DNA of 64,000 bases, taken from contig CBDFLJ010000002.1 in the NCBI GenBank assembly GCA_965248835.1, positions 128,001-192,000 on the forward strand, in the 5' to 3' direction. This stretch comes from Alphaproteobacteria bacterium. GTDB lineage: Bacteria > Pseudomonadota > Alphaproteobacteria > MPNO01. Positions 1-33,057 of this stretch are shown here, one piece after another. The notes under the pieces are model-generated. The model searched no databases. It was given only the letters and a program-made list of their open reading frames with translations, and was not told the origin of the DNA. The translations under genes were made by a program, and so were the position numbers. Within the stretch, counting starts at the first letter, position 1, and every line of letters begins with the position of its first letter.

Positions 1-283
1 CGGGCAGCCTGCGGTTGGCGGCTACCACGCCGACGAACCGCCGGGTCATCTCGCCGATCGCTGCGCGCTCCATCACTGCATCGATCGCCTTGGCCTGGTC
101 GTCGCGGCCGATGATCGGACTGGTCAGCAGGCGGGCGAGATCGCCGGACTCCTCAATCATCGCCTGCAGGCGCGTCAAATCGTCCTTGACCTGATCGAAG
201 GCGTCGCTCTCTCCGGCCAAATCGAATAAAGCGGTCGCGTACCGACCGGCGATACCGGACACGTCAATCGGCTCGGCTGACAC
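1..283 (-). CDS. atpH: F0F1 ATP synthase subunit delta (5' part, runs off window)
   Basis: Not in ORF track. Manual translation from GTG at 283: MSAEPIDVSGIAGRYATALFDLA...LARLLTSPII...RRFVGVVAANRRL, a typical OSCP/delta N-terminus; AGGGG RBS upstream. Confidence 0.92.
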   Translation of the reverse strand, partial: MSAEPIDVSGIAGRYATALFDLAGESDAFDQVKDDLTRLQAMIEESGDLARLLTSPIIGRDDQAKAIDAVMERAAIGEMTRRFVGVVAANRRLP

Positions 284-458
284 CTGAGCTTGCCCCTAAA
301 CCGTCTGGACGGTGACCTGTAATTCTCTCGTAACTGTATGAGAATCAAGGCGGTTTGTGCGCCGCGACGGGCCGGAAGACCCGCCTGCCAGCGCGGCAGG
401 CCTACCTATCACAACCCCAAGACGGTTGCAACCCGCGGCCCCGCGCGCTCCCGGCCTG

Positions 459-2555
459 TCATTGGTGGCCGTGCAGCAGTTCGGAATAGGTCGGCAGCGG
501 CCACAGACGGTGGTCCACGCGCTCCTCCAACCGATCCACCACCGCCCTTGCGGACTGCATCAGCGGTTTCATGGTTTCGTGGGCGTAGGACGCCGATTGC
601 GCCGGGCCATCCTCGGGAAACTCATCGAACGCCTCGGCCAGATTATCGGTCTCGGTAAGCAACTGCTGAACGAGATCCTCCTTCTCGCCGAAAAGCCTGG
701 AAGAAAAACCCGACCCGACGCCCGCGCGGACGTCTTCGATGGCCGCGGGGATGATGAAGGTCCGCAGGATGTTCAACAGCGTCCGCGCCTCGATCCAGAG
801 CTCCGTGGCGTACGCCTCTTGCAGGACGCCCTGACGCGCCGCAATCTCCCGTTCGTTGAAGATGCCCAAATCACCGAACAGTCTGATGTTCTTGACCGAC
901 GTCAGCTCCTGGTATGCCTCGGGGCTGCTCTTCAGATGGATCAGATCCCATCTTGCGGCGTGTTCATACAGCTCCTCGGAGTAGCCGTTGCCGCTGAACA
1001 ACGCGCCCTGGTTTTCCGCGATGGTCTCACGGATGACCTGGTCGACCTCCTTGCCGCCTTCGATCTCGTCGCACATGTGCTTCAGGCTGTCGGCCAGCGC
1101 CGCGTTGACCATCGTGAGCGGGAAGGCGATATGCTGGTTGCCGCCCACCGCCCGGAACTCGAACCGGTTGCCGCACCAGGGGAATGGCGCGGTGCGGTTG
1201 CGGTCCTCCAGATTGGCCCTGATGTCGGCGACCGGCGCCGATATCTCGATCTCCTTGTGCTGGGTTCCGTATGCGGTGAATTTGCCGCCTTCGGCGACCT
1301 TCTTGACATGCTTTTCCAGGAGCTCGCCGAGATGGAGCGTAATGATCGCCGGCGGCGCCTCCTGCGCACCCAGCCGGTGATCGTTGCCGGCGGTGGACAC
1401 CCCGCAACGCAGCAGATCACCGTGCTTGTTCACCCCGCGCAACAGCGCGGCGACGAAGGTGATGAAGCGCCGGTTGTCGTTTTCGGTTTTCCCGGGAACG
1501 AACAGATTGACGCCGGTGTCGGTGTTCAAGCCCCAGTTGTTGTGCTTGCCGTTCCCGTTGATGCCGGCAAACGGTTTTTCGTGGAACAAGATGGCGAAAC
1601 CGTGGTCGAAGGCCAGATCGCGCAGCACGTCCATCGCCAGCACGTTGGTGTCCGCGGCGAGGTTTGCCAAATTGAAGATCGGCGAGATCTCATGTTGCGC
1701 CGGCGCCACTTCGTTGTGGGTGCAGTGGATCGAAATCCCCAGCTCCCACATCTTCTCCCGCGCCGCCGCCATGTAGCGGTTCACCCGCGGCGGCAGCCTG
1801 GAGAAATAGTTGGTCGACATCTCCTGACCGCGAAGCGGCTTGGCCCCCACCAGAGTGCGTCCGGTGGCCACCAGATCGGGCCGCGCCAGATACTTCTCCC
1901 GGTCGATCAGGAAGAACTCCTGCTCCCAACCGACATTGCACACGACTTCCTTGGTGTCGGTGTCCCCGAGATGTTGCAACAACCGGAGGCTTTGTTCATT
2001 GACCGCAAGGTCGGCGCGCAACAGCGGGGTTTTCTGGTCGAGCGCCTCGCCGGTCCATGACACGAAGGCGGACGGGATGTACAGCGTTTGCCGGTAGACA
2101 AAGGGCGGTGATCCCGTATCCCAGCCCATATAAGCCGCCGCTTCGTGGGTTTCGCGGAGGCCTCCGTTGGGGAATGACGACCCATCGGTCTCGGTCTGGA
2201 ACAGTTGTGAGCCCGTCAAGTCTATGATCAACTTGTCGGTCGCGAAATCCACCGCCACGAATGTTTCGAGTTTCTCGCCGTGAATCGGCCCTCGTATGGG
2301 CGAGAACCAATGCGAATAGCCGATGCAGCCCTTCGACTGCGCCCACTCCAGGATGGATTTCGCCAACGCATCGGCGAAGTTCCTGTCCATCTGCAGCCCG
2401 GTCGCTCGGCACCGCGCGAACGCGTAATAGACGTCCGGATCGACCAGCTTTTTCAGGATCGCGTCGTCCAGCACATTGCTGTTCATGTTCGCCAATGCCT
2501 CGGGCAGGGCGACCGTCTGCGCCGGTGCGTCGTAGGTCGAATGCATCATGGCCAC
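459..2555 (-). CDS. glnN: Glutamine synthetase type III
   Basis: About 700 aa; motifs ETDGSSFPNGGLR, GWEQEFFL, HNEVAPAQHE, HEKPFAGINGNGKHNNW, HRLGAQEAPPAI, DRNRTAPF, C-terminal WPLPTY. Start moved to GTG 2555 (or ATG 2549) after GGAGG. Confidence 0.93.
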   Translation of the reverse strand: MAMMHSTYDAPAQTVALPEALANMNSNVLDDAILKKLVDPDVYYAFARCRATGLQMDRNFADALAKSILEWAQSKGCIGYSHWFSPIRGPIHGEKLETFVAVDFATDKLIIDLTGSQLFQTETDGSSFPNGGLRETHEAAAYMGWDTGSPPFVYRQTLYIPSAFVSWTGEALDQKTPLLRADLAVNEQSLRLLQHLGDTDTKEVVCNVGWEQEFFLIDREKYLARPDLVATGRTLVGAKPLRGQEMSTNYFSRLPPRVNRYMAAAREKMWELGISIHCTHNEVAPAQHEISPIFNLANLAADTNVLAMDVLRDLAFDHGFAILFHEKPFAGINGNGKHNNWGLNTDTGVNLFVPGKTENDNRRFITFVAALLRGVNKHGDLLRCGVSTAGNDHRLGAQEAPPAIITLHLGELLEKHVKKVAEGGKFTAYGTQHKEIEISAPVADIRANLEDRNRTAPFPWCGNRFEFRAVGGNQHIAFPLTMVNAALADSLKHMCDEIEGGKEVDQVIRETIAENQGALFSGNGYSEELYEHAARWDLIHLKSSPEAYQELTSVKNIRLFGDLGIFNEREIAARQGVLQEAYATELWIEARTLLNILRTFIIPAAIEDVRAGVGSGFSSRLFGEKEDLVQQLLTETDNLAEAFDEFPEDGPAQSASYAHETMKPLMQSARAVVDRLEERVDHRLWPLPTYSELLHGHQ

Positions 2556-2797
2556 CGGTTCTTCCTCCCCGATAGGTTCGCTGGTCGAGCCGAAACTACT
2601 GCATAACGCGACCGGCCGCCAAGGAGAACGATCCGCGCCGACGGCGCTGTCTGGCGCTGCGGGGCGGCGAGTATGAAGCTCCAATCAACTTGACCCTTGC
2701 GACGAAACCGGACAACAATTGTAGCGAACACTATGGACAACCGGATGCATGGCGATCGATCCGGAGCCGACATCTCGGACTGTCCGACACCGGGTGA

Positions 2798-3253
2798 AAC
2801 GTCGGTCCAGGGTTTGCTGAAATCGCTGTCCTCGAAATCTCGCTGACCAACGATCTTCAGGAGATCGCCGTCACGGCGGCGCAAATCGACGAATTTTGCG
2901 CTGCACGAGACCTGTCGCCGGCCATCGCCTTCGCCGTCAACCTGTCGGTCGATGAACTGCTGACCAACACGATCAGCTACGGCTACGACGACGGCACGCC
3001 CCATCGGATCGATATCGTGGTCCGCATGGACGGCAGCGTAATCGTCGTCGAGATCACCGACGATGCCAAGCCGTTCGATCCGTTCGAGGTCCAGAAACCC
3101 GATACCGACGCCGCGCTCGAGGATCGGCCGATCGGCGGATTGGGCGTCCACTTCGTCCGCGAGATGATGGACGGGTATCAGTACCGCCGCAGTCGGGGAC
3201 GCAACATCGTGACCTTGACCAAGGATACAAGGGGCGCCGCCGCCGGGACCTGA
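2798..3253 (+). CDS. RsbW/SpoIIAB-like anti-sigma factor Ser kinase (HATPase); start codon unresolved
   Basis: Frame open from 2798: ...LEISLTNDLQEI...VDELLTNTISYGY...DDAKPFDP...RPIGGLGVHFVREMMD; no in-frame ATG/GTG/TTG before 3017. Confidence 0.85.
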   Translation, partial: NVGPGFAEIAVLEISLTNDLQEIAVTAAQIDEFCAARDLSPAIAFAVNLSVDELLTNTISYGYDDGTPHRIDIVVRMDGSVIVVEITDDAKPFDPFEVQKPDTDAALEDRPIGGLGVHFVREMMDGYQYRRSRGRNIVTLTKDTRGAAAGT

Positions 3254-3294
3254 AGGATGAGGCGCCGGGCATCGGGCATGCCGGCGCCGCGCGG

Positions 3295-5241
3295 TCAGGC
3301 GGGCCCGCCGTTGTACCTCAGCACCAGACAGGTGATGTCGTCGGATTGCGGCGCCTCGCCGACGAATTCGGCGACCGCAAGGGTCACGTTTTCGATCACG
3401 ATGTCGACGGGGATCTCGTGGCCGACAGACAGCGCGGTTCGAATGCGTGCCTCTTCGAACATTTCGCCATCGCTGTTCATGGCTTCGGATATACCGTCGG
3501 TATACATGAACAGCGTGTCCCCCGCGGCAAGCGTCAGGCTTTTCTCTTCGTATGGCAGTTCCGGCAGGACGCCGATCGCGACCCCTCCGGTCAACGGCAA
3601 CACCTCGATCCCGCCGTCTTGTCGAACCAGGTACGGCGGATTGTGACCGCCATTGGCGTAGCTGAAATGGCCCGTTGACGGATCCAGAATGCCGTAGAAC
3701 AGCGTCACGAACAGATCGTGGGGGTTCTGCGAGCAGATCCCGTCATTGACCAGGCGCAGGCAGTCACCGGCCCGGTCGGTGTCCTGCGCGGTGGTGCGCG
3801 TAACCGTCCTTGCGATCGCCATGAAGAACGCCGCGGAGACGCCCTTGCCGGAGACATCGGCGATCACCACGCCGAGGCGGCCGTCCGGCAGGGTGAAGAA
3901 ATCGTAGAAGTCGCCGCCCATCTCGCGCGCCGGAGTCATCAGGGCGTGCCCCGAATAAGCGGTGTTTCGCGGCAAGGTCTTCGGCAGAATCGCGCCCTGG
4001 AGGGAATGCGCGATGGCGAGCTCGTCGTCCATGCGCTGTTTGGCCTGATCGAGTTGCGCGTTCTTCTGCTCCAGGTCCAACGTGCGCTCAGCGACCAGGG
4101 CTTCAAGATGTTCCTCGCGTGCCTGGACTTCGCGCGCCATCGTCTGGAAGACGCGGATCAGCCGTCCCAGCTCGTCCCGCCGGTGGCCGACGCGGTCGAG
4201 CGACTCCGGGGCGAAACTGCGCCGGTCCATCTCCTCGGCTGCCCGGGTCAGAGCCATGACCGGCCGCGTGATGCGGCGGGCCGACAATATTGCCGTCACC
4301 GAGCCGATCAGGAAGGCGGCGGCCGCAACGACCAGACCGAACATGAGGTAATCGGCGAGCAACCGGTCGAGCTGGTCACGCGGCATGTGGATGATCGCAA
4401 CGCCGGTGGCAACGCCGCCGCGGTCCAGGATGGGCGCGCCGACATGGAGCTCGTCCCGGCTCAGAAAGGACTGTGCGCCCGCACCGAGTACGCGGCCGGC
4501 GAGCGCCCTGTCGGCGGCCATAAACACCGGTTCCGGCGCGCCGCCGTGCGTGCCGCTGGCGACCGCGGCATTCACCTGAAGTGAATCGTCGACCACCCAG
4601 ATCGCCCGGACTCCGGGTTGCCCGGCCAGCGAGCCCAGCGTCGCCGCGAGGCTGATGATCTCGCGCAGGTGCGTGGTCTTGTCCACCAGGCTGCCGACCA
4701 GCACCGGCCCGCCGCCGCGGGTGCGGACGCCGACATATCGCAAGGGGCGCTCCAACCCGTCCCGCGGCACCGACTGGAGGGTGACGGAGAAACGGCGTCC
4801 CGACAGGAGGGTTTGCAAGACCGGTCCGTCGATATCCTCCAGAGCCATGTCGGTGCCGGCCTGGCTGAGCCCGTTGATGGCGCGCGCCGACGGCGTTCCG
4901 CTTTCGTCCAATATCCAGATGTCGTCGATAACGCTGTTCGCGGTAATCTCGGCGAGGTGAATGGCCAGCGCGCCGGCGTCGGGGCCGACGACCTCCGCCA
5001 AGTGGGCCAGCGCGATCGCCTGTGCCTCTTTCTCTTGCGCGACGACGCGGTCGATCTCGTCGGATATCAGCCCGGCTCGGTTGGCCTCGCCCGCGATCAG
5101 GCCGGCGACAAGCCGCGCTTGGTTCTCGGCCTGGCCGATCAGCGCATCGCGGGCCAGGAGGCCCAACGCTATCGCCACGCCGAGGATGGCAACGCCGACC
5201 GACGCCGAGACGATCAGGACCAGATGCCGGGACAGACTCAC
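3295..5241 (-). CDS. Membrane sensor with HAMP domain and SpoIIE/RsbU-type PP2C phosphatase
   Basis: Two TM segments flanking a large periplasmic region, HAMP (RRDELGRL), PP2C motifs MGGDFYD, VIADVSGKG, YTDGISEA, QSDDIT; GTGA overlap with upstream permease. Confidence 0.92.
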   Translation of the reverse strand: MSLSRHLVLIVSASVGVAILGVAIALGLLARDALIGQAENQARLVAGLIAGEANRAGLISDEIDRVVAQEKEAQAIALAHLAEVVGPDAGALAIHLAEITANSVIDDIWILDESGTPSARAINGLSQAGTDMALEDIDGPVLQTLLSGRRFSVTLQSVPRDGLERPLRYVGVRTRGGGPVLVGSLVDKTTHLREIISLAATLGSLAGQPGVRAIWVVDDSLQVNAAVASGTHGGAPEPVFMAADRALAGRVLGAGAQSFLSRDELHVGAPILDRGGVATGVAIIHMPRDQLDRLLADYLMFGLVVAAAAFLIGSVTAILSARRITRPVMALTRAAEEMDRRSFAPESLDRVGHRRDELGRLIRVFQTMAREVQAREEHLEALVAERTLDLEQKNAQLDQAKQRMDDELAIAHSLQGAILPKTLPRNTAYSGHALMTPAREMGGDFYDFFTLPDGRLGVVIADVSGKGVSAAFFMAIARTVTRTTAQDTDRAGDCLRLVNDGICSQNPHDLFVTLFYGILDPSTGHFSYANGGHNPPYLVRQDGGIEVLPLTGGVAIGVLPELPYEEKSLTLAAGDTLFMYTDGISEAMNSDGEMFEEARIRTALSVGHEIPVDIVIENVTLAVAEFVGEAPQSDDITCLVLRYNGGPA

Positions 5242-5870
5242 GTGTGCTGCTCCGCCAGGTGGACGCGCAAGCCCCGCATCACCAAGGTCACCGCGGCCGC
5301 GAAAGCGAGGAACCAGATCATTGCGTAAAGATAGACCCAGAACGAGAAATCGTTCCTGCCGATCGCGCCGATCACGGTCTCGGCCCGGTGGACGAGTTCC
5401 GGCACGCCAATGACCGAGGCGGTAGCGGAGGCCATGACGATGATCAGGAAATAGCTGGTCCAGGACGGCAGGAACAGCAGCGCTTCTGCGGTCTCTCGGC
5501 GTCTGAGGTGCCGCAGCGCGGCGAGCGCGTTGTCGGACACATAGCCGGCCACCGCGATCGCCAGCGCGAGCGATGCCTTGATCCAGGCCGGCACGGTCAC
5601 GACGACGCCAAGGAGTTCGAAGGTTCCGGGGACGGCATAGGCGAGATAGAACAGCATCACGAAGGTCGGCGCGCTGCGGGCGAACACCGTCAGCGCGCCG
5701 CCGCCCCGGCTGACGCCCGAAACGGAGCCGGCCCGCATCAACGCCAGCAGCAGCCCGATCGGCGTACCGATCGCCATCGCGGCCAGCGAGACGGCCATGT
5801 TCCAGCCGAACCCGCCCGCGAGGTAGGGCGTCCAGGTTATCAGCACGTCGGCAACATCGAGCATCGTCAT
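5238..5870 (-). CDS. Polar amino acid ABC-type permease (HisM/GlnP-like), degenerate EAA loop
   Basis: Hydrophobic protein, FARSAPTFVMLF (cf. RGTPLLVQLF), ASVIGVPEL; ATGA overlap with upstream gene. Confidence 0.8.
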   Translation of the reverse strand: MTMLDVADVLITWTPYLAGGFGWNMAVSLAAMAIGTPIGLLLALMRAGSVSGVSRGGGALTVFARSAPTFVMLFYLAYAVPGTFELLGVVVTVPAWIKASLALAIAVAGYVSDNALAALRHLRRRETAEALLFLPSWTSYFLIIVMASATASVIGVPELVHRAETVIGAIGRNDFSFWVYLYAMIWFLAFAAAVTLVMRGLRVHLAEQHT

Positions 5871-7477
5871 GACGCGTGGCCCCGCTGTTCCCAAAGGCGG
5901 AAGAGCTGGACCGTGAGGAAGACCAGTACGAAGTAGCAGATCAGCAGCAGGTTCATCATCACGTCGTCATTGCCTTTTTCGGCAACGATGGCGGTGCTGG
6001 CGTGCACCAGCTCCGGCAATGCCAGGGTGCTGGCCATCCCGGTCGCCTTGACGATGTTGACCGAATTGCCCATCACCGCGGCGTGGCACAGGCGCAGCGC
6101 CCGGCGGAACTCCCGGATTCTGAAGCCCAGCGCGCCGCCCGTGCCGGCGGCGACGTCCGCCGCCAGGGCGAACGAAACGGCATTGCTGGCTGCGGCGTAT
6201 AGCGACAACACCACGGATGTGACGGTGAATGCGTCGAGCGAGAAGCCGAGCGCCAGAATGACACCGCCAAGCCCGAAAAAGACGACATAGAGTTGCAGCA
6301 ACGGCGGCGTCATCCGCAAGACCGCGCAAAACGCATGCAGAAACCCACCGACGACCGGCACGCGCCGATGCATCAGCCAACCGAACACCGCGCCCAGGAC
6401 GATGCTGCCCATGACCGTCACGATCGACAGCGCGGCCGTCAGGGCCAGGCCGAAGAGAAAGACGTTGCGGTCCAGCGGGTCGTAGAGCAGGCTGACGTCC
6501 AGACCCGTCGCCTCCATCAGCATCAGGGATACCCCGGAAATGCCACCCAGTTCGCGGCCCGCGACCAGCGCGACCTCGCGGCATGCCAGCGGCCATCTTC
6601 CGGCGTCGTCGCGCCGGCAGACCAATTCGCCGGCCGCGTCGGTCTGCTGCCAAGTCGACCGGGCGCGCCGCAAATAGGGTGAGGGCGGCAACCCCCACCG
6701 CTTCTCCAGCTCTTGCAGGAAGCCGCCGCGGTGCCATCCGGCCAGCGTGTCGCCCAGCAGTCGATCCAGGCGGCTGCCCGCCTCTTCCTTGGCGATGGCG
6801 ATCGCCCAGGGTGAAACGAAACGCGTAGGCAAGGACACGCTGTAGCCGTCCCAGTCTCCGCTCGCCAGCTCATTCAACAGGTTGACTTCGTCGTACAGCC
6901 AACCGATGCAGTGCCCGTTGCGCAAGGCCAGCAAGGCCTCCCGCGTGGAGTTGAGGGAGATCGGCTCGACCAGGAGACGTTCGCGGGCGAGGCGATTCCA
7001 CAGCGAGCCCTGGACGCTGCACAGCGTCCGGCCCCGCAGGTCCTGCCAATCGGAGATCCGCGCATCCGGCCGCAACAGGACGTTGGCGCCGTCGCCGTAA
7101 TATTGCGGCTCGACCATGGTAACGAGCTCGCGGCGGCTGCGGGTGTCGCCCAGCGTGGCGACGATGACGTCGATTTCTCCGCGCTGGAGCTTCTGCAGCC
7201 GGTTGGCGCTGGTCACTGGTTTCAACCGCAGCGACACGCCGATGGCTTCGGCCAAGGCGCGGGCGACATCGGTATCGTAGCCGACCAGGGCGCCGCTGGC
7301 GTCGCGGAAGCCGAAGGGTCGGTAGTCGGCCTTGACCCCGGCAACCAGATAGCCGCGGCCGCGGATCTCCTCAAGCCGGTCGGCTGCGGCCGCGCCGACG
7401 CTGCACAGCCACACGCCGAATGCGATAAGCACGAAACCTGCATAGGGGCATGGGCGGTGCCGGCCAGAAGTGCTCAC
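5867..7477 (-). CDS. Fusion of family-3 amino acid binding protein and ABC permease
   Basis: Signal peptide, GVKADYRPFGF, GYDTDVA, LQRGEIDVIVAT, then TM domain with LRMTPPLLQLYVVFFGL and NIVKATGMAS; GTG start overlaps methyltransferase stop (GTGA). Confidence 0.85.
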   Translation of the reverse strand: MSTSGRHRPCPYAGFVLIAFGVWLCSVGAAAADRLEEIRGRGYLVAGVKADYRPFGFRDASGALVGYDTDVARALAEAIGVSLRLKPVTSANRLQKLQRGEIDVIVATLGDTRSRRELVTMVEPQYYGDGANVLLRPDARISDWQDLRGRTLCSVQGSLWNRLARERLLVEPISLNSTREALLALRNGHCIGWLYDEVNLLNELASGDWDGYSVSLPTRFVSPWAIAIAKEEAGSRLDRLLGDTLAGWHRGGFLQELEKRWGLPPSPYLRRARSTWQQTDAAGELVCRRDDAGRWPLACREVALVAGRELGGISGVSLMLMEATGLDVSLLYDPLDRNVFLFGLALTAALSIVTVMGSIVLGAVFGWLMHRRVPVVGGFLHAFCAVLRMTPPLLQLYVVFFGLGGVILALGFSLDAFTVTSVVLSLYAAASNAVSFALAADVAAGTGGALGFRIREFRRALRLCHAAVMGNSVNIVKATGMASTLALPELVHASTAIVAEKGNDDVMMNLLLICYFVLVFLTVQLFRLWEQRGHAS

Positions 7478-8322
7478 GGAGCGCCCGGAGCCCGAGGTCG
7501 GCTCACGATCAAGAAACCGTAGCCGCTGGCCACGGGCGCGAGCCGGCACGCCAGGTCGTCCAGTCGGCCGAGCAACGGCTTGCCGACAACAAGACTTTCG
7601 GGCAGCAGGCTCTCGGGTTCCATGCTCTCGATGCGGAAACCTGCGGCCGAGAGGTCGCGGTGTACCTCCGGCGGACGGAAGAGGTGGTAGAACAGCCGGA
7701 TCTCGTCGCGGCCGCGGCCGCGCGTATAGAGTATGTCGCCGGGCTCGAGTTCGCCGGCCCGCACCAGCGGGTCCGCCGCGCGTTGTTCGGCGCGAAACCG
7801 CCGTCGCGCATTCGGCAGGCCAAGGATCAGGACGCCGTCCGGTTTCAGCATTTCGCGCACCGCTCCGAGCAGGCGCATGCGCTCCGCCCGTCCGGCGACG
7901 TGCCCCAGAACCCCGAAAGTCAAAAGCGTGAGATCGAACGCGCAACGATACTTCTCGGCCAGCGCGGTCAGGTCGCCGTTCCGGATGACGAGCCGTCCGT
8001 CGCCCACGAACGCGCGCAGGCGCTCCGCCATCGTCTGGCACGCCGCCGGACAGACATCGTAGGCCACCCCGTTCGCCCGGGTCAGTTCCATCAGCGGCAG
8101 CGTGTAACGTCCCGTGCCCGCGCCAAAGTCGAGGAAGCGGCCTTCGGCGGGCAGACAGCGCAGCGACGTCCTCAGCGTGCGCCGGTTCGGGCGTGGATAG
8201 CGCTGGTCGTAAAGGCCGGAGGAGATGTAGGCCTCGTAACTGCCGGCCATGTCGGGCACTTCCGCCTGCGGTGCGGGCGTGTCGTGGTCCGGGACGCTAG
8301 CGGCGTCCCTGGGTGCGATCAT
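7474..8322 (-). CDS. Class I SAM-dependent methyltransferase
   Basis: Motif I FLDFGAGTGRY, LKPDGVLIL; start may be the later ATG at 8250. Confidence 0.85.
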   Translation of the reverse strand: MIAPRDAASVPDHDTPAPQAEVPDMAGSYEAYISSGLYDQRYPRPNRRTLRTSLRCLPAEGRFLDFGAGTGRYTLPLMELTRANGVAYDVCPAACQTMAERLRAFVGDGRLVIRNGDLTALAEKYRCAFDLTLLTFGVLGHVAGRAERMRLLGAVREMLKPDGVLILGLPNARRRFRAEQRAADPLVRAGELEPGDILYTRGRGRDEIRLFYHLFRPPEVHRDLSAAGFRIESMEPESLLPESLVVGKPLLGRLDDLACRLAPVASGYGFLIVSRPRAPGAP

Positions 8323-8411
8323 TGTCCCTCCGTCGGCCTCGGCTCATTGGGGGCTTGTCTCCGAAGCGACGACATCATTATGCTGCCGACATCGGGTCAA
8401 CCCTAATATTG

Positions 8412-8489
8412 GCGGTCCCGGTTGGCAATGCATTACGCAGTCCCGGTCGGCAATGCATAGTATTGCGGCGGTCCCGTTGGGCAAATTGC
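8412..8489. repeat. Three imperfect direct repeats GTCCCG(G)TYGGCAATGCAT in a divergent promoter region
   Basis: gtcccggttggcaatgcat 8415-8433, gtcccggtcggcaatgcat 8440-8458, gtcccgttgggcaaattgc 8471-8489. Confidence 0.8.
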
Positions 8490-8575
8490 GCGCTGGAATC
8501 GGCTCTGGAAGGGGCGGGCATGAGGACTTGCGGACGCGCAACGCCTGGATTGCCGATGGCGAAAAGGGGCAAAGG

Positions 8576-9478
8576 TTGAGACCGCGAGTCAAGGATCCGT
8601 TGCGACGCTGGTCGATGGCGGCGGTGCTGGTGTTGGCCGGGCTGGCGGCCCACGCCGGAGCGCACGCGGCCGATGGCGTCCTGGAACGGGTCGCGGCCGA
8701 GGGGGTGATTCGCGCGGGCACCCGGGCAAGCGCGGCGCCCTTCGCCCAGAAGACGGCCTCCGGAGAGTTCGAGGGATTTTCGGTCGACCTGCTCGAGGAG
8801 ATCCGCGCAGCCGCCCAGAGGACGGTCGGCCGGGCCGTCCGGCTTGCGCTTTTCGAAGTTACCCCGGCCGATCGGCTGCAGCGCGTCGCAGCCGGCGAGA
8901 TCGACATCGTCTGTGGCATCACCACGCCGACCTGGAAGCGGGAAGGTCTGGTGGATTTCTCCCTGCCGTTCTTCCGCGACGGGACCCGTGTGATGGTCTA
9001 TCGTGGGCGTGCTGGGCGCGTCGCAGACATCCACCGGCTCAAGATCGGCGTGGTCCAGGGCACCACCACCGTAGCGGTTGTCAAAGATCGGCTGCCCGCG
9101 GCCAGTCTGCGCGTTTACGCCAACATGGGCAATGCGATGCGCGGGCTGGAGACCGGCGAGGTCGAGGGCGTGGCCAATGTCGGCGTCGTGCTGCTCGGGC
9201 TGAGTGCACGCAGCAAGCCGCGGCGCAGCGTCGTGTTGTTGCCCAGGACCCGCGCGTTGGCGACGGAAACTCTGGCCTGTGTCCTGCCGCAGAACGACAG
9301 CCGTTGGCGGGATCTGATCAACCGGACCTTGGTCGAGATGTATCTCGACGTGGAAGACTTCCGCGGCCGTTACGAGGAAATCTACAACCGCTGGTTCGGT
9401 CGCGACAGTGCGCTGTTCTATCCGCTCGACCGCGGTACCCGCGCCTACCTTGCCGATATCTCGGTCTGGGCCAGGTGA
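8576..9478 (+). CDS. Family-3 amino acid ABC substrate-binding protein (Glu/Asp-binding-like)
   Basis: Signal peptide ...AAHAGAHA; GTRASAAPF, EGFSVDL, GEIDIVCGITT, VDFSLPFF; start TTG 8576 or ATG 8615. Confidence 0.85.
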   Translation: MRPRVKDPLRRWSMAAVLVLAGLAAHAGAHAADGVLERVAAEGVIRAGTRASAAPFAQKTASGEFEGFSVDLLEEIRAAAQRTVGRAVRLALFEVTPADRLQRVAAGEIDIVCGITTPTWKREGLVDFSLPFFRDGTRVMVYRGRAGRVADIHRLKIGVVQGTTTVAVVKDRLPAASLRVYANMGNAMRGLETGEVEGVANVGVVLLGLSARSKPRRSVVLLPRTRALATETLACVLPQNDSRWRDLINRTLVEMYLDVEDFRGRYEEIYNRWFGRDSALFYPLDRGTRAYLADISVWAR

Positions 9479-9501
9479 TCGCCTCGATGTGCGCCGGCCG
9501 C

Positions 9502-9539
9502 GTTCGATCCGGATCCCGGATCCCGGGATCGAATCGAAC
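9502..9539. repeat. GATC-rich inverted repeat/hairpin between binding-protein gene and amtB
   Basis: gttcgat-ccggatcccggatcccgggatcga-atcgaac. Confidence 0.6.
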
Positions 9540-9579
9540 AACATGGGGCTGCCGTCGGCTGCCAGGACGCAGACCTGAA

Positions 9580-10968
9580 ATGAACCGCCGCAAGGTTGGC
9601 CCTCCGGGGTCCAGGGCGCGGCTTGGTGCAGCTCTGCCCTTCGGCTTCGCGGCCGCACTCTCCCTGGCGCTCTTCTCCTCGGAAGCGCGCGCCGCGCTCG
9701 ATAGCGAGACCCAGTTCGTCCTGAACAGTTTTTCGTTCCTGGTGTGGGGCGCACTCGTGATGTGGATGTGCGCCGGCTTTACCATGCTCGAAGCGGGTTC
9801 GGTGCGCACCAAGAACGCCTCCGTGATCTGCCTCAAGAACATCGGCCTCTATTCTATCGCCGGGCTGATGTTTTACTTGGTCGGCTACAACATCATGTAT
9901 GTTGACGTCGAGGCGGGCGGCTGGTTCGGCTCCCTCGCACTCCTTTACGAGACCTCGGCCGAAGAAGTCGCCATGTTGCAGGGCGGGGCGGAGACGACGG
10001 CCGCGGTCGTCAAGACCGGCCATGCGACGATGTCGGGCTGAATTTTCCAGATGGTGTTCGTGGCCACGACGGCCTCGATCGTGTCCGGCGCCTTGGCCGA
10101 ACGGGCAAAGCTGTGGTCGTTTCTGGTCTTCGTTACCGTGCTCACGACGATCATCTATCCGGTCGTCGGCGCCTGGACGTGGGGCGGCGGATGGCTCGCC
10201 GAAATGGGTTTCAAGGACTTCGCCGGATCGACCATCGTGCACTCGACCGGCGGCTGGGCGGCGTTGGCCGGCGCCCTCGTCGTCGGCGCGCGGAAAGGCA
10301 AGTTCCGCCAAGATGGCAGCGTCAAGGCGACCCCGCCGTCGAACGTACCCGCGGTGACGCTGGGCGTGTTCATTCTCTGGCTCGGTTGGTTCGGTTTCAA
10401 CGGCGGTTCGCAGTTGGCGCTCGCCGGTGTCGTCGACGCGGTGGCGATCAGCAATATCCTGGCCAACACGAACCTCGCCGCGGCCGCGGGCGTGATGTCG
10501 GCGATGTGCTTGTCGCGGCCCATCCTGGGGCGCCTCGATCTGCTCGCGAGCCTGAACGGCGCTATCGCCGGACTGGTGGCGATTACCGCGGGGCCCGACA
10601 TCGTCGATCACTATTGGGCTGTCGTCATCGGCGCGGTCGGCGGCGCCGTATGCGTCGCCGGTCTGAAGCTCCTGGAGCGCTTCAAGATCGACGATGTCGT
10701 CGGCGCAATCCCGGCCCATCTGTTCGCCGGCATCTGGGGGACGCTCGCGGTTTGCATTGCAGGCGGCGGCGATCTGCTGGTACAAATTGCCGGAATCGCG
10801 GCCATCGGCGCCGCGGTATTCGGTGCCTCTTGGTTGACGTGGTCGGTCATAAAGTGGACGATTGGCGTGCGTACCACGCCGATCGTCGAGCAGTTGGGTC
10901 AGGATGTGGCGGAGTTGGGCATCGAGGCCTATCCGGAATTCGTGGTCGTGCCAGACGCCGATGACTGA
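9580..10968 (+). pseudogene. amtB: Ammonium transporter interrupted by an in-frame TGA at 10039-10041
   Basis: ORFs 9304-10041 and 10051-10968 share one frame: GFTMLEAGSVRTKN...MSG*IFQMVFVATTASIVSGALAER, DFAGSTIVH, WLGWFGFNGGS, IDDVVGAIPAH, AYPEF. Confidence 0.88.
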
Positions 10969-11069
10969 GGGCCGAACAGCCCGCCCAAGCGGGGCGGTAC
11001 CGCGTGTGGCCTGCCGCCGGACGGACATGGGATGTAATTCGAAGGGGGCGACCCCGGGAGACGAAGACG

Positions 11070-11408
11070 ATGGACGTTACGACCGAACGGCATGACGATG
11101 TTCTGTCCGCCGACGTGGGCGGGCGCATCGACGGATCCAATGTCGTCCAGTTCGAGGAAGCGATCAGAACCGCGATCGAGGACAGCGACCGCGCCGTGAT
11201 CATGGATTTCGGGAAGCTGGTATATATCAGCAGCGCGGGCCTTCGCGCCGTCCTGTTGACGGCCAAGTCCCTCCACAGCCGTGACGCCAAGCTGTTGCTT
11301 TGCTCGCTTTCGGGGCCGATCCGCGAGGTCTTCGAGATAAGCGGTTTTGACAAGATCCTGCCCATTCACCCGTCCCGGGCCGAAGCTCTCTCGTCTCTGG
11401 GCGGCTGA
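11070..11408 (+). CDS. STAS anti-sigma factor antagonist (RsbV/SpoIIAA-like)
   Basis: GRIDG, MDFGKLVYISSAGLR with phosphoacceptor Ser, EVFEISGF. Confidence 0.92.
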   Translation: MDVTTERHDDVLSADVGGRIDGSNVVQFEEAIRTAIEDSDRAVIMDFGKLVYISSAGLRAVLLTAKSLHSRDAKLLLCSLSGPIREVFEISGFDKILPIHPSRAEALSSLGG

Positions 11409-11561
11409 TGCCGGAGATACCGATCGCTTGCAGCGCCTGGCCTGGAGCGCGACGACGCCGTCCCGGATCGGGGATATCTCGTTGCGAGCCACCCTTTCGC
11501 CCGCTAGCTTCGAAGTGCCGGATCGAACGTCTATTCTCTATTTCGGAGATAACCAGACAGC

Positions 11562-11918
11562 ATGCTGAACGTTACAGAAGAAAAAGCCGCCTCTGTGGCC
11601 ATCGTCTTGATCGACGGCCGTGCCGATGGCGTGACGGCGCCGGACCTTGAAGACCGGATCGTGAAAATTGTCGAACGCGGCGATGTCGATGTGTTGCTTG
11701 ATTGTGAAAAGATGGAATACATCAGCAGCGCAGGGTTGCGTGTCCTTCTCATAGGCGCCAGAAAATGCGAACAGAACGGCGGCAAGCTGTCGATTTGTGC
11801 GCTGCAGCCCGATTGTAGATCGGTCATCGAAATCGGCGGATTTCAAACGGTAATCGATTGTTATGACACACGCGAAGCCGCCCTCGCGGCCGCAGCGCAG
11901 CGGAGCGCAACATGCTGA
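11562..11918 (+). CDS. STAS anti-sigma factor antagonist, second copy
   Basis: LDCEKMEYISSAGLRVLL, VIEIGGF. Confidence 0.92.
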   Translation: MLNVTEEKAASVAIVLIDGRADGVTAPDLEDRIVKIVERGDVDVLLDCEKMEYISSAGLRVLLIGARKCEQNGGKLSICALQPDCRSVIEIGGFQTVIDCYDTREAALAAAAQRSATC

Positions 11919-12568
11919 CATTTGCGGAAGAGATTTTGTTGCTGATGCTGGATGACGAGGACGGTTCGTTTCTGCCGGTTCGTGAAAGCGCTGTCGAATA
12001 TGCCCTCGCAGGCGCTGTGCTGATGGACTTGGCGTTCTCGAACCGGATCGACACCGACCCGGATCAACTCGTTCTTCTGGACAACAAACCGACCGGCCAC
12101 CCGGTCCATGACAGAGTTCTTGATCACATTGCGCGCTCGTCCGAGACCAAGGACACGAAGACATGGATCGAGACGATTGCCCGGCTTGAATCCGCGGATA
12201 TCAGGAACCAGGCTCTTTCCAGCCTGATCGACCAGAATATTCTCGAATCACAAGAGGAAAAATTCCTTTGGGTCTTCCGCGCACGGCGATATCCGACGAT
12301 TGACGGGCGCACGGAACGCGAAGTGAAGCGGCGCATCACCGATGTCCTGCTGTCCGAAGCGGTGCCGGACCCCAGGGATGTAGCAATCGTCGGCCTGGCC
12401 GATGCCTGCGATCTGCTGCGCGAGGTGTTTTCCGACCGGGAGATCAACCGGATACGCCCGCGCATCGATCAGATCCGCAACCTGGATCTCCTCGGTCGCG
12501 AGGTTAGCGGCGCCGTCCTGGAAATCGAACGTTCGATCGCCATGGCGATGATGCATGCACCGCACTGA
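11912..12568 (+). CDS. GPP34/GOLPH3 (Vps74)-family protein
   Basis: LTFAEEILLLMLDDE, LAGAVLMDL, KFLWVF..RRYP, PDPRD pattern of bacterial GPP34 proteins; overlaps STAS stop. Confidence 0.8.
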   Translation: MLTFAEEILLLMLDDEDGSFLPVRESAVEYALAGAVLMDLAFSNRIDTDPDQLVLLDNKPTGHPVHDRVLDHIARSSETKDTKTWIETIARLESADIRNQALSSLIDQNILESQEEKFLWVFRARRYPTIDGRTEREVKRRITDVLLSEAVPDPRDVAIVGLADACDLLREVFSDREINRIRPRIDQIRNLDLLGREVSGAVLEIERSIAMAMMHAPH

Positions 12569-12600
12569 AACACCGCACCGAAACACCAACTGAAACACCG
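12564..12600 (+). repeat. Three tandem 12-13 bp repeats ACYGAAACACCR at the island end
   Basis: actgaaacaccgc / accgaaacacca / actgaaacaccg. Confidence 0.8.
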
Positions 12601-12685
12601 ACCGGCATTTTCCCTCAGGCATCCTAAGGCAATTTCCAATCGGGTCGACTCGAGCCGATACGGTTCCCGGCCGGCCTGATCGGCG

Positions 12686-14203
12686 TCAACCCTCGGTCTC
12701 GAAGGTGCGGATGTCGGGGGGCTCTCCGGGCAGGCCGAGAGACCGCCAGGCCCCGGCGACTTCCTCGTAGACCTCACGGCGCAGCGTCGTGCGTTTGGCG
12801 AATTCCGTCAGGTGTTTGTGCGGCTTGCAGACGTTGATCAGCGCCTTCGAGCCGTAGGGCCGGTTCTCCGGCGGATGCTGGCTCGGGTCGAGCTGGGTGC
12901 TCCAGGTGTTGCGCAGGAAATCGATATCCTCGATAGGGTTGCACCGGCTGCCCATCGCCCACAGCACCTCGTCCATGTTCGACGGGTCGATGTCCTCATC
13001 CACGGCGATGATCCACTTGGTGAAATAGGCTCCGCCCGGCATCTGGGCGGCGAGCGCCAGCGCCTGGGCGGCGTGTCCGGCATAGAGCTGCTCCAGACTG
13101 ATCACTGTCATCCCCAGCCCGCCCGAGACCGCGGGGTGGGCATAGACCCCCTTGATGCCCGGGATCCCCAGTGAATCGAAATCGTCCCATACCCGGGCCG
13201 AGCGGATGACGGCGAAGAAGCCGCTCTGCTCGCACGAGGGGTAATCGGCCATCAGCGCGTTGGTCAGGATCGGGTTGTCGCGGAAGTGGACCGCGGTCAC
13301 CTCCATCAGCGGTGCCTGGCCGCCGGGCTTGCCGTAATAGCCGGTGAACTCGCCGAACGGGCCTTCCTCGGCGGTGGCGTTGGGGCGGATCACCCCTTCG
13401 AGGACCAGGTCCGCGTTGGCCGGCAGGAGCAGATCGGTGGTCTTGCCGCGCACCACCGGCACGGGCTGGCCTTTCAGGCCGCCGATATACTCATACTCGG
13501 AGACGTTCTTGGGGAAGCCCTGCGAGCCGACCAGCATGAACAGCGGGTCGATCCCCCAGGCGGCGGCGACCTGGACCTCTTCGCCGCGCGCCCAGCCCCG
13601 CGCGATGTGCAACCGCGCGTCCTTGCCGGGCGACAGGTAGAGCCCGGCCTGGCGCTTGCCTTGCTGCATCATCCGGTAGGTCCCGATATTGAGGTGGCCG
13701 CTGTCCGGATCGCGTGTGATCACCGCGTCCCCGGTGCCGCCGTAGCGTCCGCCGTCGAGCGGCCAGTGCTTGGGGATCGGCAGCAGGTCGAGGTCGATCT
13801 CATCGCCGATCAGCGTGTTCTGGAAGATCGGCGCCTCGTCGGGCTGCACTTCGGCGGGCGGCGTGCGGTTCTTCATCTTCGACTTGACCCGGCCGATCAG
13901 GTCGATCGCCGGCGTGTCGACCGGCTCCTCCAAGGTGAGCGCGACCCGGCGCAGGCTGGGGCCGACCAGGTTCCACAACAGCCGGGCGCCGACCGGGCTT
14001 TCCTCGAACCCGGCCGGATTCTCGAACAGCACCGTGGGCGAGGGCCGGCGCTTGGCCAGCATGTAGACCACTGCGCTCATCACCTCGTCGCGGCTCACCG
14101 GCGCGTCGATGCGCACCAGTTCGCCGATCTCCTCGACCTCTTCGATCCATTGCCGGAGATCCTGGATCGGCTCGTTGCGCGTGCGCTGTTCGATGTCGTT
14201 CAT
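12686..14203 (-). CDS. UbiD-family (prFMN-dependent) decarboxylase
   Basis: DGGRY, NIGTYRM, EGPFGEFTGYY, IAVDEDIDP, STQLDPS. Confidence 0.92.
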   Translation of the reverse strand: MNDIEQRTRNEPIQDLRQWIEEVEEIGELVRIDAPVSRDEVMSAVVYMLAKRRPSPTVLFENPAGFEESPVGARLLWNLVGPSLRRVALTLEEPVDTPAIDLIGRVKSKMKNRTPPAEVQPDEAPIFQNTLIGDEIDLDLLPIPKHWPLDGGRYGGTGDAVITRDPDSGHLNIGTYRMMQQGKRQAGLYLSPGKDARLHIARGWARGEEVQVAAAWGIDPLFMLVGSQGFPKNVSEYEYIGGLKGQPVPVVRGKTTDLLLPANADLVLEGVIRPNATAEEGPFGEFTGYYGKPGGQAPLMEVTAVHFRDNPILTNALMADYPSCEQSGFFAVIRSARVWDDFDSLGIPGIKGVYAHPAVSGGLGMTVISLEQLYAGHAAQALALAAQMPGGAYFTKWIIAVDEDIDPSNMDEVLWAMGSRCNPIEDIDFLRNTWSTQLDPSQHPPENRPYGSKALINVCKPHKHLTEFAKRTTLRREVYEEVAGAWRSLGLPGEPPDIRTFETEG

Positions 14204-31376: not shown

Positions 31377-31497
31377 CCCTCTCCCCTTGCTTCGACCGGC
31401 CGGAGTCTCACCGCTTGAACCCGGCCGCGCAAGCGCGATTGCCGCGGTGTCCGGCCGGACCTAACATCGGCGTCGAGCGGCATTGAGGAGCTCGTCG

Positions 31498-33057
31498 ATG
31501 GCCAGCGTCTTGAGAGAGGGCACCGTGGCGGCGAACGCGCCCGACATGGAGACCTACCGGCTGCGCCGCTTCATCGAGCAGCTTGTCGAAATGGACTTGG
31601 CCGAGATCCACGAGGACCCGATCGATCTGATCGACCTCGCCCGCGTGCTCGACGGCAACCCGAAGGCGGTGCTGTTCAAGAACGCCGGATCCGAAGGGGC
31701 CGAACTGGTCGGCGGTGTGACCGGCAGCCGGGCGCGGATCGCGGCCGCGTTCGGTGTCGCGCCGGGCGCGTTGCTCCAGACGGTGCGCAGTCGGCTCGCC
31801 CAGCCGCAGCCTCTGGTCGAGGTCGCGAGCGTCGAGGCACCGGTCCACGCGGTGATCCTGCGCGGCGAGGAGGCCGATCTGACGCGCCTGCCCGTCCATG
31901 TGCAGCACGAACGCGACGGCGGACCCTATATCTCGTCCTCGCTCGACCATGTGGTCGATCCCGAGACCGGCCTGACCAATCTCGGCTGCCGCCGGATGAT
32001 GCTGCGCGGCAAGCGGGAGGCCGGTGTCGACCTCAACGCGCCGAGCGATTTGAAGGCGATCTACGAACGGGCCGCGGCGCGCGGCGAAACGCTGCCGGTG
32101 AGCTTCGTGGTCGGTGCCCACCCGACCGACCACGTTGCCGCCTCGATGCGCGTGCCGACCAACGAGATCGAGCTGATCGCCCGGCTGCGCGGCCAGCCGC
32201 TGGCGGTCGTCCGGGGCGTGACCAACGATGTCCTGGTGCCGGCCGATGCCGAGATCGTGCTGGAGGGCTATTTCGATTCGCGCGGCCATGTCGAGCCGGA
32301 AGCACCCTACGGCGAGTTCCTCGGCTATTACGGCGTCATGAAGCAGAACCCCGTCTTTCACCTCGAAGCGATCACCATGCGTTCCGACGCGTTGTTCCAG
32401 ACATCGACCATCAGCGGCCAGACGATCGAGCACACCGACACCGCGCAGATCGGTGCGCTGCGCGCCGAGGCGACGGCCTGGGGGGCGCTGGAGACTGCTG
32501 TCCGCGAGCCCGTGGCGATCTGCGCGAGCGCGTCTTCGGGCGGCAGCTTCAACATGCGCGTCGCCCTGCGCCAGCGCGTGCCAGGCGAGGCGCGCAACGC
32601 GATCGCGGCCGTCTTCGCCTCGCTGTCCAACACCAAGAACGTTTTCGTGGTCGACGCGGACATCGACGTGTTCTCCGATTCGCAAATCGACTGGGCGCTC
32701 GCCACCCGGTTCCAGCCCGACCGGGACCTGGTCATCGATTCGGGGTTTCGGACGCTGCCGCTCGATCCTTCGCTGGACGGCAAACGGACGGGTGGGAAGG
32801 CCGGCTTCGATCTGACGCGGCCGTTCGGCAGCGACCTGCCGCTCCATTACACCGTCCCGGACCCGCCGTCCTTGGGCGCGCCCGAATTCGCATCGGTGCG
32901 CGAGGCGCTGGCCGATGGGCCTAAATATTTCGGCACCCTGGTCGCAGCGCTGGGCAGCCGCGACGGCCGCGAGGTCGTGCTGGCGCTCGACGACCTCCGC
33001 GCGCAAGGCGCCCTTATGCGCGCCGGCGACGGCATGTATGCGCTGAGCGGGGGCTGA
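31498..33057 (+). CDS. UbiD-family decarboxylase with C-terminal extension
   Basis: DGGPYISS, NLGCRRMM, EAPYGEFLGYY, VVDADID, WALATRFQPDRD. Confidence 0.9.
   Translation: MASVLREGTVAANAPDMETYRLRRFIEQLVEMDLAEIHEDPIDLIDLARVLDGNPKAVLFKNAGSEGAELVGGVTGSRARIAAAFGVAPGALLQTVRSRLAQPQPLVEVASVEAPVHAVILRGEEADLTRLPVHVQHERDGGPYISSSLDHVVDPETGLTNLGCRRMMLRGKREAGVDLNAPSDLKAIYERAAARGETLPVSFVVGAHPTDHVAASMRVPTNEIELIARLRGQPLAVVRGVTNDVLVPADAEIVLEGYFDSRGHVEPEAPYGEFLGYYGVMKQNPVFHLEAITMRSDALFQTSTISGQTIEHTDTAQIGALRAEATAWGALETAVREPVAICASASSGGSFNMRVALRQRVPGEARNAIAAVFASLSNTKNVFVVDADIDVFSDSQIDWALATRFQPDRDLVIDSGFRTLPLDPSLDGKRTGGKAGFDLTRPFGSDLPLHYTVPDPPSLGAPEFASVREALADGPKYFGTLVAALGSRDGREVVLALDDLRAQGALMRAGDGMYALSGG

Follow-up and report, generated by a model that had tools for sequence, protein, structure and literature searches.

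What does a partner switch control when the sigma factor that defines such systems is missing? The question is raised by a gene cluster at positions 459-12568 of the 64-kb stretch of alphaproteobacterial DNA analysed here (the window, meaning the whole stretch), where a type III glutamine synthetase (GSIII) and an ammonium transporter (Amt) are encoded together with an RsbW-like serine kinase, a PP2C phosphatase and two STAS proteins, STAS1 and STAS2. The parts belong to textbook partner-switch families, but their usual sigma factor is missing. In standard teaching, bacterial ammonium uptake is governed by PII (GlnK), and partner switches mainly govern sigma factors. An initial annotation of this DNA had proposed that a Ser-phosphorylation switch regulates ammonium uptake and assimilation at the locus. 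The comparative evidence makes it likely that the switch is functionally tied to Amt and nitrogen assimilation, and the narrower reading, that the cluster is a sigma-factor-independent partner-switching module dedicated to nitrogen acquisition, may be right or wrong with about equal probability; direct action of STAS1 on Amt is a tentative element of that reading.

Genes were read from the listing of open reading frames (ORFs) and from Pfam and NCBIfam scans, by which every gene listed in the initial annotation was recovered within 459-12568. Absent from that annotation were the methyltransferase gene at 7474-8322, the nature of two permease-like genes and a TGA codon within amt. The genes of the cluster are the following (TM, transmembrane helix; SBP, solute-binding protein; ABC, ATP-binding cassette):

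459..2552, minus strand: GlnN-type (type III) glutamine synthetase (GSIII), 697 aa from an ATG at 2550-2552; Pfam GSIII_N 161, Gln-synt_C 74 and Gln-synt_C-ter 87 bits.
2798..3253, plus strand: RsbW/SpoIIAB-like Ser kinase (HATPase_c_2), a 151-codon stop-to-stop frame; PF13581 87 bits.
3295..5241, minus strand: membrane phosphatase with TM, dCache-like periplasmic domain, TM, HAMP and PP2C (SpoIIE), 648 aa; SpoIIE 180 and HAMP 28 bits.
5238..5894, minus strand: ABC-permease-like membrane protein, 218 aa, its end overlapping the PP2C start; TIGR01726 37.7 bits, cut-off 42.2.
5867..7432, minus strand: SBP_bac_3 domain fused to an ABC-permease-like C-terminal half, probable GTG start at 7432; SBP_bac_3 80 and TIGR01726 36 bits.
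7474..8322, minus strand: class I S-adenosylmethionine-dependent methyltransferase, 282 aa, first gene of the minus-strand operon; Pfam Methyltransf_12/23/25/11, E 7e-10 to 2e-7.
~8600..9478, plus strand: orphan periplasmic SBP_bac_3 protein, divergently transcribed; SBP_bac_3 77 bits, TIGR04262 'orphan' SBP 135 bits, below its cut-off of 190.
9580..10968, plus strand: ammonium transporter (Amt) of the 'marine subtype' TIGR03644, with an in-frame TGA at 10039-10041; TIGR03644 397 bits after the stop and 95 before it.
11070..11408, plus strand: STAS1, single-domain anti-sigma-antagonist type, starting 101 nt after amt; Pfam STAS 66 bits.
11562..11918, plus strand: STAS2, a paralogue 34% identical to STAS1, its stop overlapping the GPP34 start; Pfam STAS 61 bits.
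11912..12568, plus strand: GPP34 (GOLPH3-like), 218 aa; PF05719 166 bits.

The minus-strand operon runs from the methyltransferase through the SBP-permease fusion and the permease-like protein to the sensor-HAMP-PP2C, with overlapping gene ends, and the kinase frame is convergent with PP2C and divergent from GSIII. The GSIII frame stays open upstream of its ATG as far as a TTG at 2684; all three Pfam domains of the enzyme exceed their cut-offs, and a score of only 40 bits against TIGR03105 (cut-off 470) indicates that it is not of the GlnT type (~435 aa). The frame of the orphan SBP is open from 8249, with the true start at ~8650.

The core of a partner switch can be recognized in single-domain STAS proteins with a conserved phospho-acceptor Ser and a PP2C phosphatase of the SpoIIE family, here unaccompanied by a cognate sigma factor of the SigB/F/G group. 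The STAS1 profile aligns to the SpoIIAA structures 1th8_B and 1auz_A (E ~3e-17), placing the second Ser of ISSAG on the Ser of the SpoIIAA DSSG motif, the residue that is phosphorylated in SpoIIAA. Both STAS1 and STAS2 contain YISSAGLR, as the initial annotation had stated, and the Ser-Ser of the motif is invariant in 18 and in 25 aligned sequences. The SpoIIE match of the phosphatase spans profile positions 1-191 of 192. In an alignment of homologues the kinase conserves the N-box and GGLG; its matches to RsbW and SpoIIAB models are weak (25-29 bits), and a phmmer search with it against PDB sequences gave no match. The kinase frame contains no ATG, GTG or TTG before the first conserved strand, LEISL (window 2798-2860), and the orthologues at loci L024, L025, L032 and L034 likewise offer only ATT, ATC or CTG at this point, others having GTG or ATG (L and G numbers are our handles for loci and genomes). 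The missing canonical start is thus a trait shared among orthologues rather than a local defect, and the kinase may use a weak, non-canonical start codon.

The initial annotation had made its proposal depend on the genes recurring together in other genomes, and in relatives they do so, even reordered. The PP2C gene was searched for in 41 genomes, with up to 20 kb taken around each orthologue, and tblastn located full-length orthologues (56-82% identity) in 14 of 40 relatives, at 15 places in all. The methyltransferase, SBP-permease fusion, permease-like gene, PP2C and divergent SBP are present in all 15 loci, with the methyltransferase (56-74% identical) directly upstream of the fusion (69-83%) each time, and with identities of 61-77% for the 218-aa permease-like protein and 59-84% for the orphan SBP. 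GSIII, kinase, PP2C, Amt and STAS1 occur together in nine of these loci (L024, L025, L027-L030, L032, L036, L037), and GSIII in the relatives' loci is 71-86% identical over the aligned part, two matches being cut by a contig end. L023, L026 and L031 are also cut by contig ends, and the missing genes of the same-genus genome G001 lie on other small contigs. In L036 and L037 the same set has another order, with amt-STAS1-GSIII in one direction, and its persistence in shuffled order suggests selection on the set. STAS2-GPP34 is joined to the cluster only in the window, G001 and L036, and the flanks of the cluster differ between genera. In G035 the PP2C reading frame extends to 1428 codons.

The association of STAS1 with amt extends far beyond these relatives. 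A class-wide search found STAS1 matches at E<=1e-10 in 67 of 401 genomes. Among the ten best loci of other families (at least 51% identity), STAS1 directly follows this type of Amt in five (L040, L042-L045) and an Amt of another type in two (L047, L048), where the gap of ~430 nt is a PII gene; the remaining three lie beside GPP34 (L039, L041, L046). The 19 weaker loci (at most 46% identity) are ordinary kinase/PP2C triads with no amt in their 1.5-kb flanks. A scan of species-representative genomes with a STAS alignment gave 80 STAS1-type loci (two duplicate loci from the earlier searches) from Alpha- and Gammaproteobacteria, Chloroflexota, Acidobacteriota, Gemmatimonadota, Latescibacterota, Binatia, Nitrospirales and others. 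The amt gene is directly upstream and co-directional in 18 of the 80 and within 10 kb in six more, and at loci of at least 60% identity it is adjacent in seven of eight, the eighth starting at a contig end. Within the 80 loci PP2C is found in 59, the kinase in 63, GPP34 in five and GSIII in two. The broader idea that STAS follows transporters in general was considered and rejected: the genes upstream of 39 amt-less loci (39 of the 60 extracted ORFs were scanned) are heterogeneous, including sulfatase, DNA polymerase III, RmlD and others.

Searching from the transporter leads to the same pairing. The C-terminal part of Amt has matches in 111 of the same 401 genomes, and a close clade in 10 genomes (71-83% identity) aligns through the last residue; by coordinates, STAS1 is immediately downstream in six of the ten (G053, G407, G230, G282, G113, G249). 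Amts of at most 64% identity end ~8 residues earlier, and of seven sampled, six have PII directly upstream and none has STAS; in none of the ~23 genomes with both such an Amt match and a STAS match do the two lie within 2 kb by coordinates. A maximum-likelihood tree of 43 Amts separates a glnK-linked group from a clade of all 26 STAS-linked Amts with support of 100/100, and this clade mixes Alpha- and Gammaproteobacteria, Chloroflexota and Binatia; as many rows were chosen through STAS1, the tree shows clustering, not frequency. Variant clusters are found in G002 (same genus) and G230 (other family), each with a GSIII 84-85% identical, a receiver-PP2C, an RsbW-like kinase, a HAMP histidine kinase and amt-PII-STAS1-like genes. 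Between GSIII and PP2C, Pfam identifies two Peripla_BP_6 proteins, an sCache protein and a major facilitator superfamily protein in G002, and a transposase and a helix-turn-helix protein are among the ORFs scanned in G230. Sensors thus differ between clusters, but the Amt-STAS link, often with GSIII, persists. A glnK-linked Amt of G002 (L163, G002:C1:3325000-3334000) is in two frames, with a shift near 'ITAGP' that is either a frameshifted gene or a sequencing error.

Within the genome of the window (4.89 Mb in 2 contigs, completeness 100, contamination 9.5), the two STAS genes, the single SpoIIE-PP2C and the single strong HATPase_c_2 of the cluster are the only ones of their kind. Profile searches found no sigma70-family, PII or NtrC-like gene in the 64-kb window. 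A Sigma70_r2 search finds five sigma70-family genes in the genome, none of them in the window, and none qualifies under the SigB/F/G model TIGR02980, the best genome-wide score being 133 bits against a cut-off of 234. The claim that PII and NtrBC are missing needs to be confined to the island and the window: a single PII gene (glnB) lies beside a type I glnA ~790 kb from the cluster, GlnD is present above its cut-off, and there is one full-length NtrC-like regulator, which falls below the NtrC cut-off. 'No PII' is therefore true of the island, not of the organism. An ECF-type sigma70 match lies ~1.5 kb from the PII-glnA locus (L001, G000:C2:920779-924201).

The phosphatase carries a sensor of its own. 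A structural model of its residues 1-330, built from a 14-row alignment (mean predicted local confidence, pLDDT, 73.6), has two PAS-like alpha/beta modules and a long stalk helix between two TM helices, as in dCache domains. The top Foldseek matches in the PDB are dCache sensor domains (2p7j, 3lid, 6fu4, 4xmq, 5ltx; E 4e-8 to 1e-6, probability 1.0, TM 0.3-0.5), amino-acid chemoreceptors among them; a Pfam scan of the protein gave no dCache match. The co-transcribed permease-like genes match permease families only below threshold: the 218-aa protein has no Pfam match even at E<=10, the permease-like half of the fusion has no BPD_transp_1 match at E<=10, and both score 36-38 bits against TIGR01726, under the cut-off of 42.2. 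Neither window 1-13000 nor the cluster at 15 relatives' loci contains an ABC ATPase, as judged by a regular expression (not an HMM) for Walker A followed by LSGGQ. Relative to a polar amino-acid ABC importer of the HisJQMP type, the cluster thus possesses the family-3 SBP and lacks the canonical BPD_transp_1 permeases and the ABC ATPase, and we infer that the permease/SBP/PP2C unit is a sensor derived from a transporter.

One lesion complicates the picture in this strain. An in-frame TGA at 10039-10041 replaces an invariant Trp codon in the MSDWFFQ motif of Amt, where TGG is found in 12 of 12 relatives' amt genes and in G001; the site reads GACTGGTTC in relatives and GGCTGAATT here, a difference of four bases in nine. 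A genome search with PF00909 gave one Amt match only, at 317 bits and containing the one TGA, so that no intact Amt channel was found. Contigs from four of four runs of one sample, possibly the source sample of the window itself, span the stop with no differences, and the TGA is therefore not an assembler slip. A second, lower-depth variant also spans the site (12 other letters and one gap overall), for which the match table does not give the codon. Reading of TGA as Trp under an alternative genetic code was rejected on composition (~65% G+C). An ATG lies three codons downstream of the TGA. As the genome's only amt is interrupted, the Amt arm of the system is probably inactive or only leaky in this strain, and the intact state of the remaining genes suggests either recent loss of amt or further outputs such as GSIII or GPP34.

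How might such a switch operate? On the input side, the dCache-HAMP-PP2C, co-transcribed with the methyltransferase and with two ATPase-less permease-like proteins, one of them fused to an amino-acid-type SBP domain, would act as sensor; together with the divergent orphan SBP, these proteins probably signal the presence of amino acids in the periplasm or of another organic nitrogen compound. At the core, the conserved Ser of both STAS proteins would be phosphorylated by the RsbW-like kinase and dephosphorylated by PP2C. On the output side, STAS1, whose gene directly follows an amt of a distinct clade in which the customary glnK neighbour has been lost, would in one phosphorylation state act on Amt, in a GlnK-like role or beside GlnK, and GSIII and GPP34 are possible further outputs. 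Of this scheme, the genes and domain folds present, the module's uniqueness in the genome, the lack of a SigB/F-type sigma factor and the conserved neighbourhood in several phyla are observed, whereas the phosphotransfer, the ligand and every protein contact we infer. A complex prediction for the intact Amt and STAS1 of L027, with a 25-row alignment for each, scored 0.14 against a mark of 0.32 and lends the contact no support. In its fullest form the proposal is that STAS1 is a phosphorylation-gated Amt regulator, independent of PII or layered on it, and that an Amt clade that lost glnK gained a switch with interchangeable sensors and spread horizontally over at least five phyla, with GSIII and the symbiosis-associated GPP34 co-regulated; this version is possible but less likely than not.

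Several observations weigh against a nitrogen-dedicated switch that acts through Amt. There is no amt within 10 kb in 56 of the 80 STAS1-type loci, four of the 10 close-clade Amt genomes (G088, G314, G429, G159) have no STAS downstream, many loci were selected through STAS1 itself, and kin are not independent. Among the relatives' loci, L034 has Amt without STAS1, and L033 (G035) and L035 (G022) consist of the sensor operon and divergent SBP with no kinase, STAS, Amt or GSIII within 20 kb. The G1 motif of the kinase is DDA in the window and all 14 close orthologues, placing Ala where 66 of 88 homologues have Gly (DDG), which leaves kinase activity unproven. In at least seven genomes a PII gene lies between amt and STAS; replacement of PII is thus not general, and the switch may work with PII. 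Finally, the genome's only amt has a stop codon while the other cluster genes are intact, by which Amt may be neither the only nor the main output. The regulatory proposal of the initial annotation accordingly survives in part. The link itself is well supported by the recurring gene set, by STAS1 following amt or amt-glnK in several phyla, by the lack of a SigB/F/G sigma, by this being the sole partner-switch set of the genome and by GSIII in two variant clusters; phosphotransfer, binding to Amt or GSIII and activity in this strain, whose sole amt is interrupted, are putative, and the absence of PII is true only of the island.

The local system may be vestigial, the nonsense codon in amt marking a module that is being lost, a reading compatible with any of the others for the intact relatives. 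This is a real if minority possibility, since the TGA occupies an invariant Trp codon in a stretch of multiple base changes, is reproduced in the contigs of all the runs, interrupts the sole Amt of the genome and is absent from the intact site of G001. Against decay, every other cluster gene has an open frame with 73-86% identity to its G001 counterpart, and apart from the stop codon amt shows the same level of conservation as the genes around it. UGA codons are sometimes read through, and an ATG follows closely; the runs, moreover, may come from the window's own source. Less probable, but deserving of attention, is a reversal of the signal in which Amt, or Amt-GlnK, is the sensor rather than the target: the channel would sequester STAS1 at the membrane and so signal ammonium flux, the freed kinase/STAS would regulate GSIII, GPP34 and others, and the SBP/permease/dCache-PP2C unit would add an organic-nitrogen signal. 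Genetic linkage fits any direction of signalling equally well, three types of cluster include GSIII, GPP34 turns up repeatedly next to STAS and next to amt, and switch genes that stay intact despite a broken amt fit outputs other than Amt. Loss of an essential sensor Amt should, however, disable the system too, and within 10 kb of the 80 STAS1-type loci GSIII is found in only 2 and GPP34 in 5, as compared to 24 with amt.

Two further explanations appear improbable. If the RsbW-like protein were a classical anti-sigma factor that sequesters a distal sigma (RpoD, RpoH-like or ECF), the cluster would be its regulon or a passenger. The kinase does belong to the anti-sigma kinase family, as its RsbW and SpoIIAB matches indicate, sigma70-family genes are available in the genome, and in Chlamydia anti-sigma action on the housekeeping sigma has been proposed; but no SigB/F/G-type sigma reaches the cut-off, none of any kind lies in the window or among 16 variant-cluster ORFs run through Pfam (the relatives' clusters had no sigma query), and the tight adjacency of amt and STAS across phyla would go unexplained. 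Co-location without biochemical coupling, by a horizontally moving island or a shared promoter region under the same nitrogen regime, would leave the switch free to control something unrelated. A lower GC3 (G+C at third codon positions) in cluster genes than in the rest of the window, an Amt clade that mixes phyla, the 92% DNA identity of STAS1-STAS2-GPP34 to a block in a genome of another family and flanks that change between genera all fit this explanation. It is harder to reconcile with a set that survives reshuffling (L036, L037) and recurs with different sensors and a different Amt type, usually the mark of a functional link, or with the lack of any other recurring upstream partner at amt-less STAS loci.

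The STAS1-STAS2-GPP34 block (11001-12568) is 92% identical in DNA to G339:C4:816087-817653 (L148), from another family (96, 91 and 92% in protein), as compared to only 80% for G001 of the same genus; in L148 no amt lies upstream and a STAS fragment follows. The block thus looks to have been moved recently by horizontal transfer. GC3 of the cluster genes is 0.75-0.83, as opposed to 0.83-0.91 for the non-overlapped ORFs of 12689-63131, which fits a horizontally acquired island, and G+C dips to 0.59-0.61 at 11-13 kb. The STAS2-GPP34 pair also occurs in L036, L161, L162 and L148. GPP34 lies beside STAS1-type genes in L041, L046, L057 and L059, and directly upstream of this Amt clade in L036 (G016) and L169 (G088), making GPP34, STAS and Amt a recurring trio. 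The sigma-54 -24/-12 pattern is matched 20 times where chance predicts 21, and never between the genes of the cluster, and sigma-70 promoter and terminator scans show no excess over shuffled sequence.

A GPP34 family of sponge symbionts, with cytochrome P450 neighbours, has been proposed to act in host phagocytosis (PMC11706023). The GPP34 of the window is likewise short, single-domain and alphaproteobacterial, and the phyla with STAS1-type loci overlap those given for GPP34 in that paper. It differs in overlapping STAS2 and in recurring beside STAS and amt; STAS, ammonium and anti-sigma have no mentions in the paper's main text.

The cluster shares its three switch families (STAS with Ser, GHKL Ser kinase and SpoIIE PP2C) with the RsbU/RsbV/RsbW-SigB and SpoIIE/SpoIIAA/SpoIIAB-SigF systems of Bacillus subtilis, and differs in having no cognate group-3 sigma, a membrane dCache-HAMP phosphatase, two STAS proteins and a setting amid amt, GSIII, SBP and GPP34 genes. 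Its architecture most resembles that of sigma-independent switches such as SiaABCD of Pseudomonas aeruginosa, which consists of a TM-HAMP-PP2C, a small kinase, a small phospho-protein and a non-sigma target. SiaA is the best NCBIfam match of the PP2C, but the score against NF038263 (114 bits, cut-off 700) shows that it is not a SiaA orthologue; unlike SiaABCD, no GGDEF domain is found among the cluster proteins scanned, the substrate is a true STAS protein and the proposed target is a transporter or enzyme. Chlamydia Rsb and Synechocystis icfG likewise combine a single kinase and a single PP2C with two STAS proteins, and their readout is metabolic, not stress-related; the RsbU of Chlamydia, too, contains a periplasmic sensor domain. 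In sensor and organism they differ from the cluster, and we know of no report of either system beside amt or GSIII.

With AmtB-GlnK the cluster shares a small signalling protein encoded next to amt, and the GlnK-like role suggested for STAS1 is a proposed analogy. STAS has an unrelated fold, would be governed by Ser phosphorylation instead of uridylylation and 2-oxoglutarate, and is encoded downstream rather than upstream of amt; no PII is adjacent to amt in the window, whereas PII and STAS together accompany amt in the genomes noted above. In full-text literature searches no paper was met that connects STAS or partner switching with Amt or GSIII, and a term search of a STAS review (PMC8256260) returned zero mentions of ammoni-, nitrogen or glutamine.

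Beyond the cluster, the remaining genes of the window are those of catabolism and central metabolism, including acyl-CoA ligases, enoyl-CoA hydratases, two UbiD genes, a molybdo-enzyme and tkt-gap-pgk. The UbiD-family decarboxylase genes, at 12686-14203 and 31465-33054, lie amid acyl-CoA ligase, enoyl-CoA hydratase, Rieske oxygenase and molybdo-enzyme genes, which suggests an aromatic or acyl-CoA catabolic neighbourhood.

If the proposed switch exists, the conserved amt-STAS pairing in a glnK-less Amt clade would link the fields of ammonium uptake and partner switching, and a transporter would be added to the short list of non-sigma partner-switch outputs. It would offer a testable explanation for Amt gating in organisms with a single PII, and would place bacterial GPP34, hitherto considered only for a part in host interaction, in the physiological context of nitrogen. 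The interchangeable sensors of the clusters, dCache-PP2C with SBP/permease-like proteins in one and a histidine kinase with receiver-PP2C and Peripla_BP_6 proteins in another, suggest that the availability of organic nitrogen may in this way be integrated with ammonium uptake.

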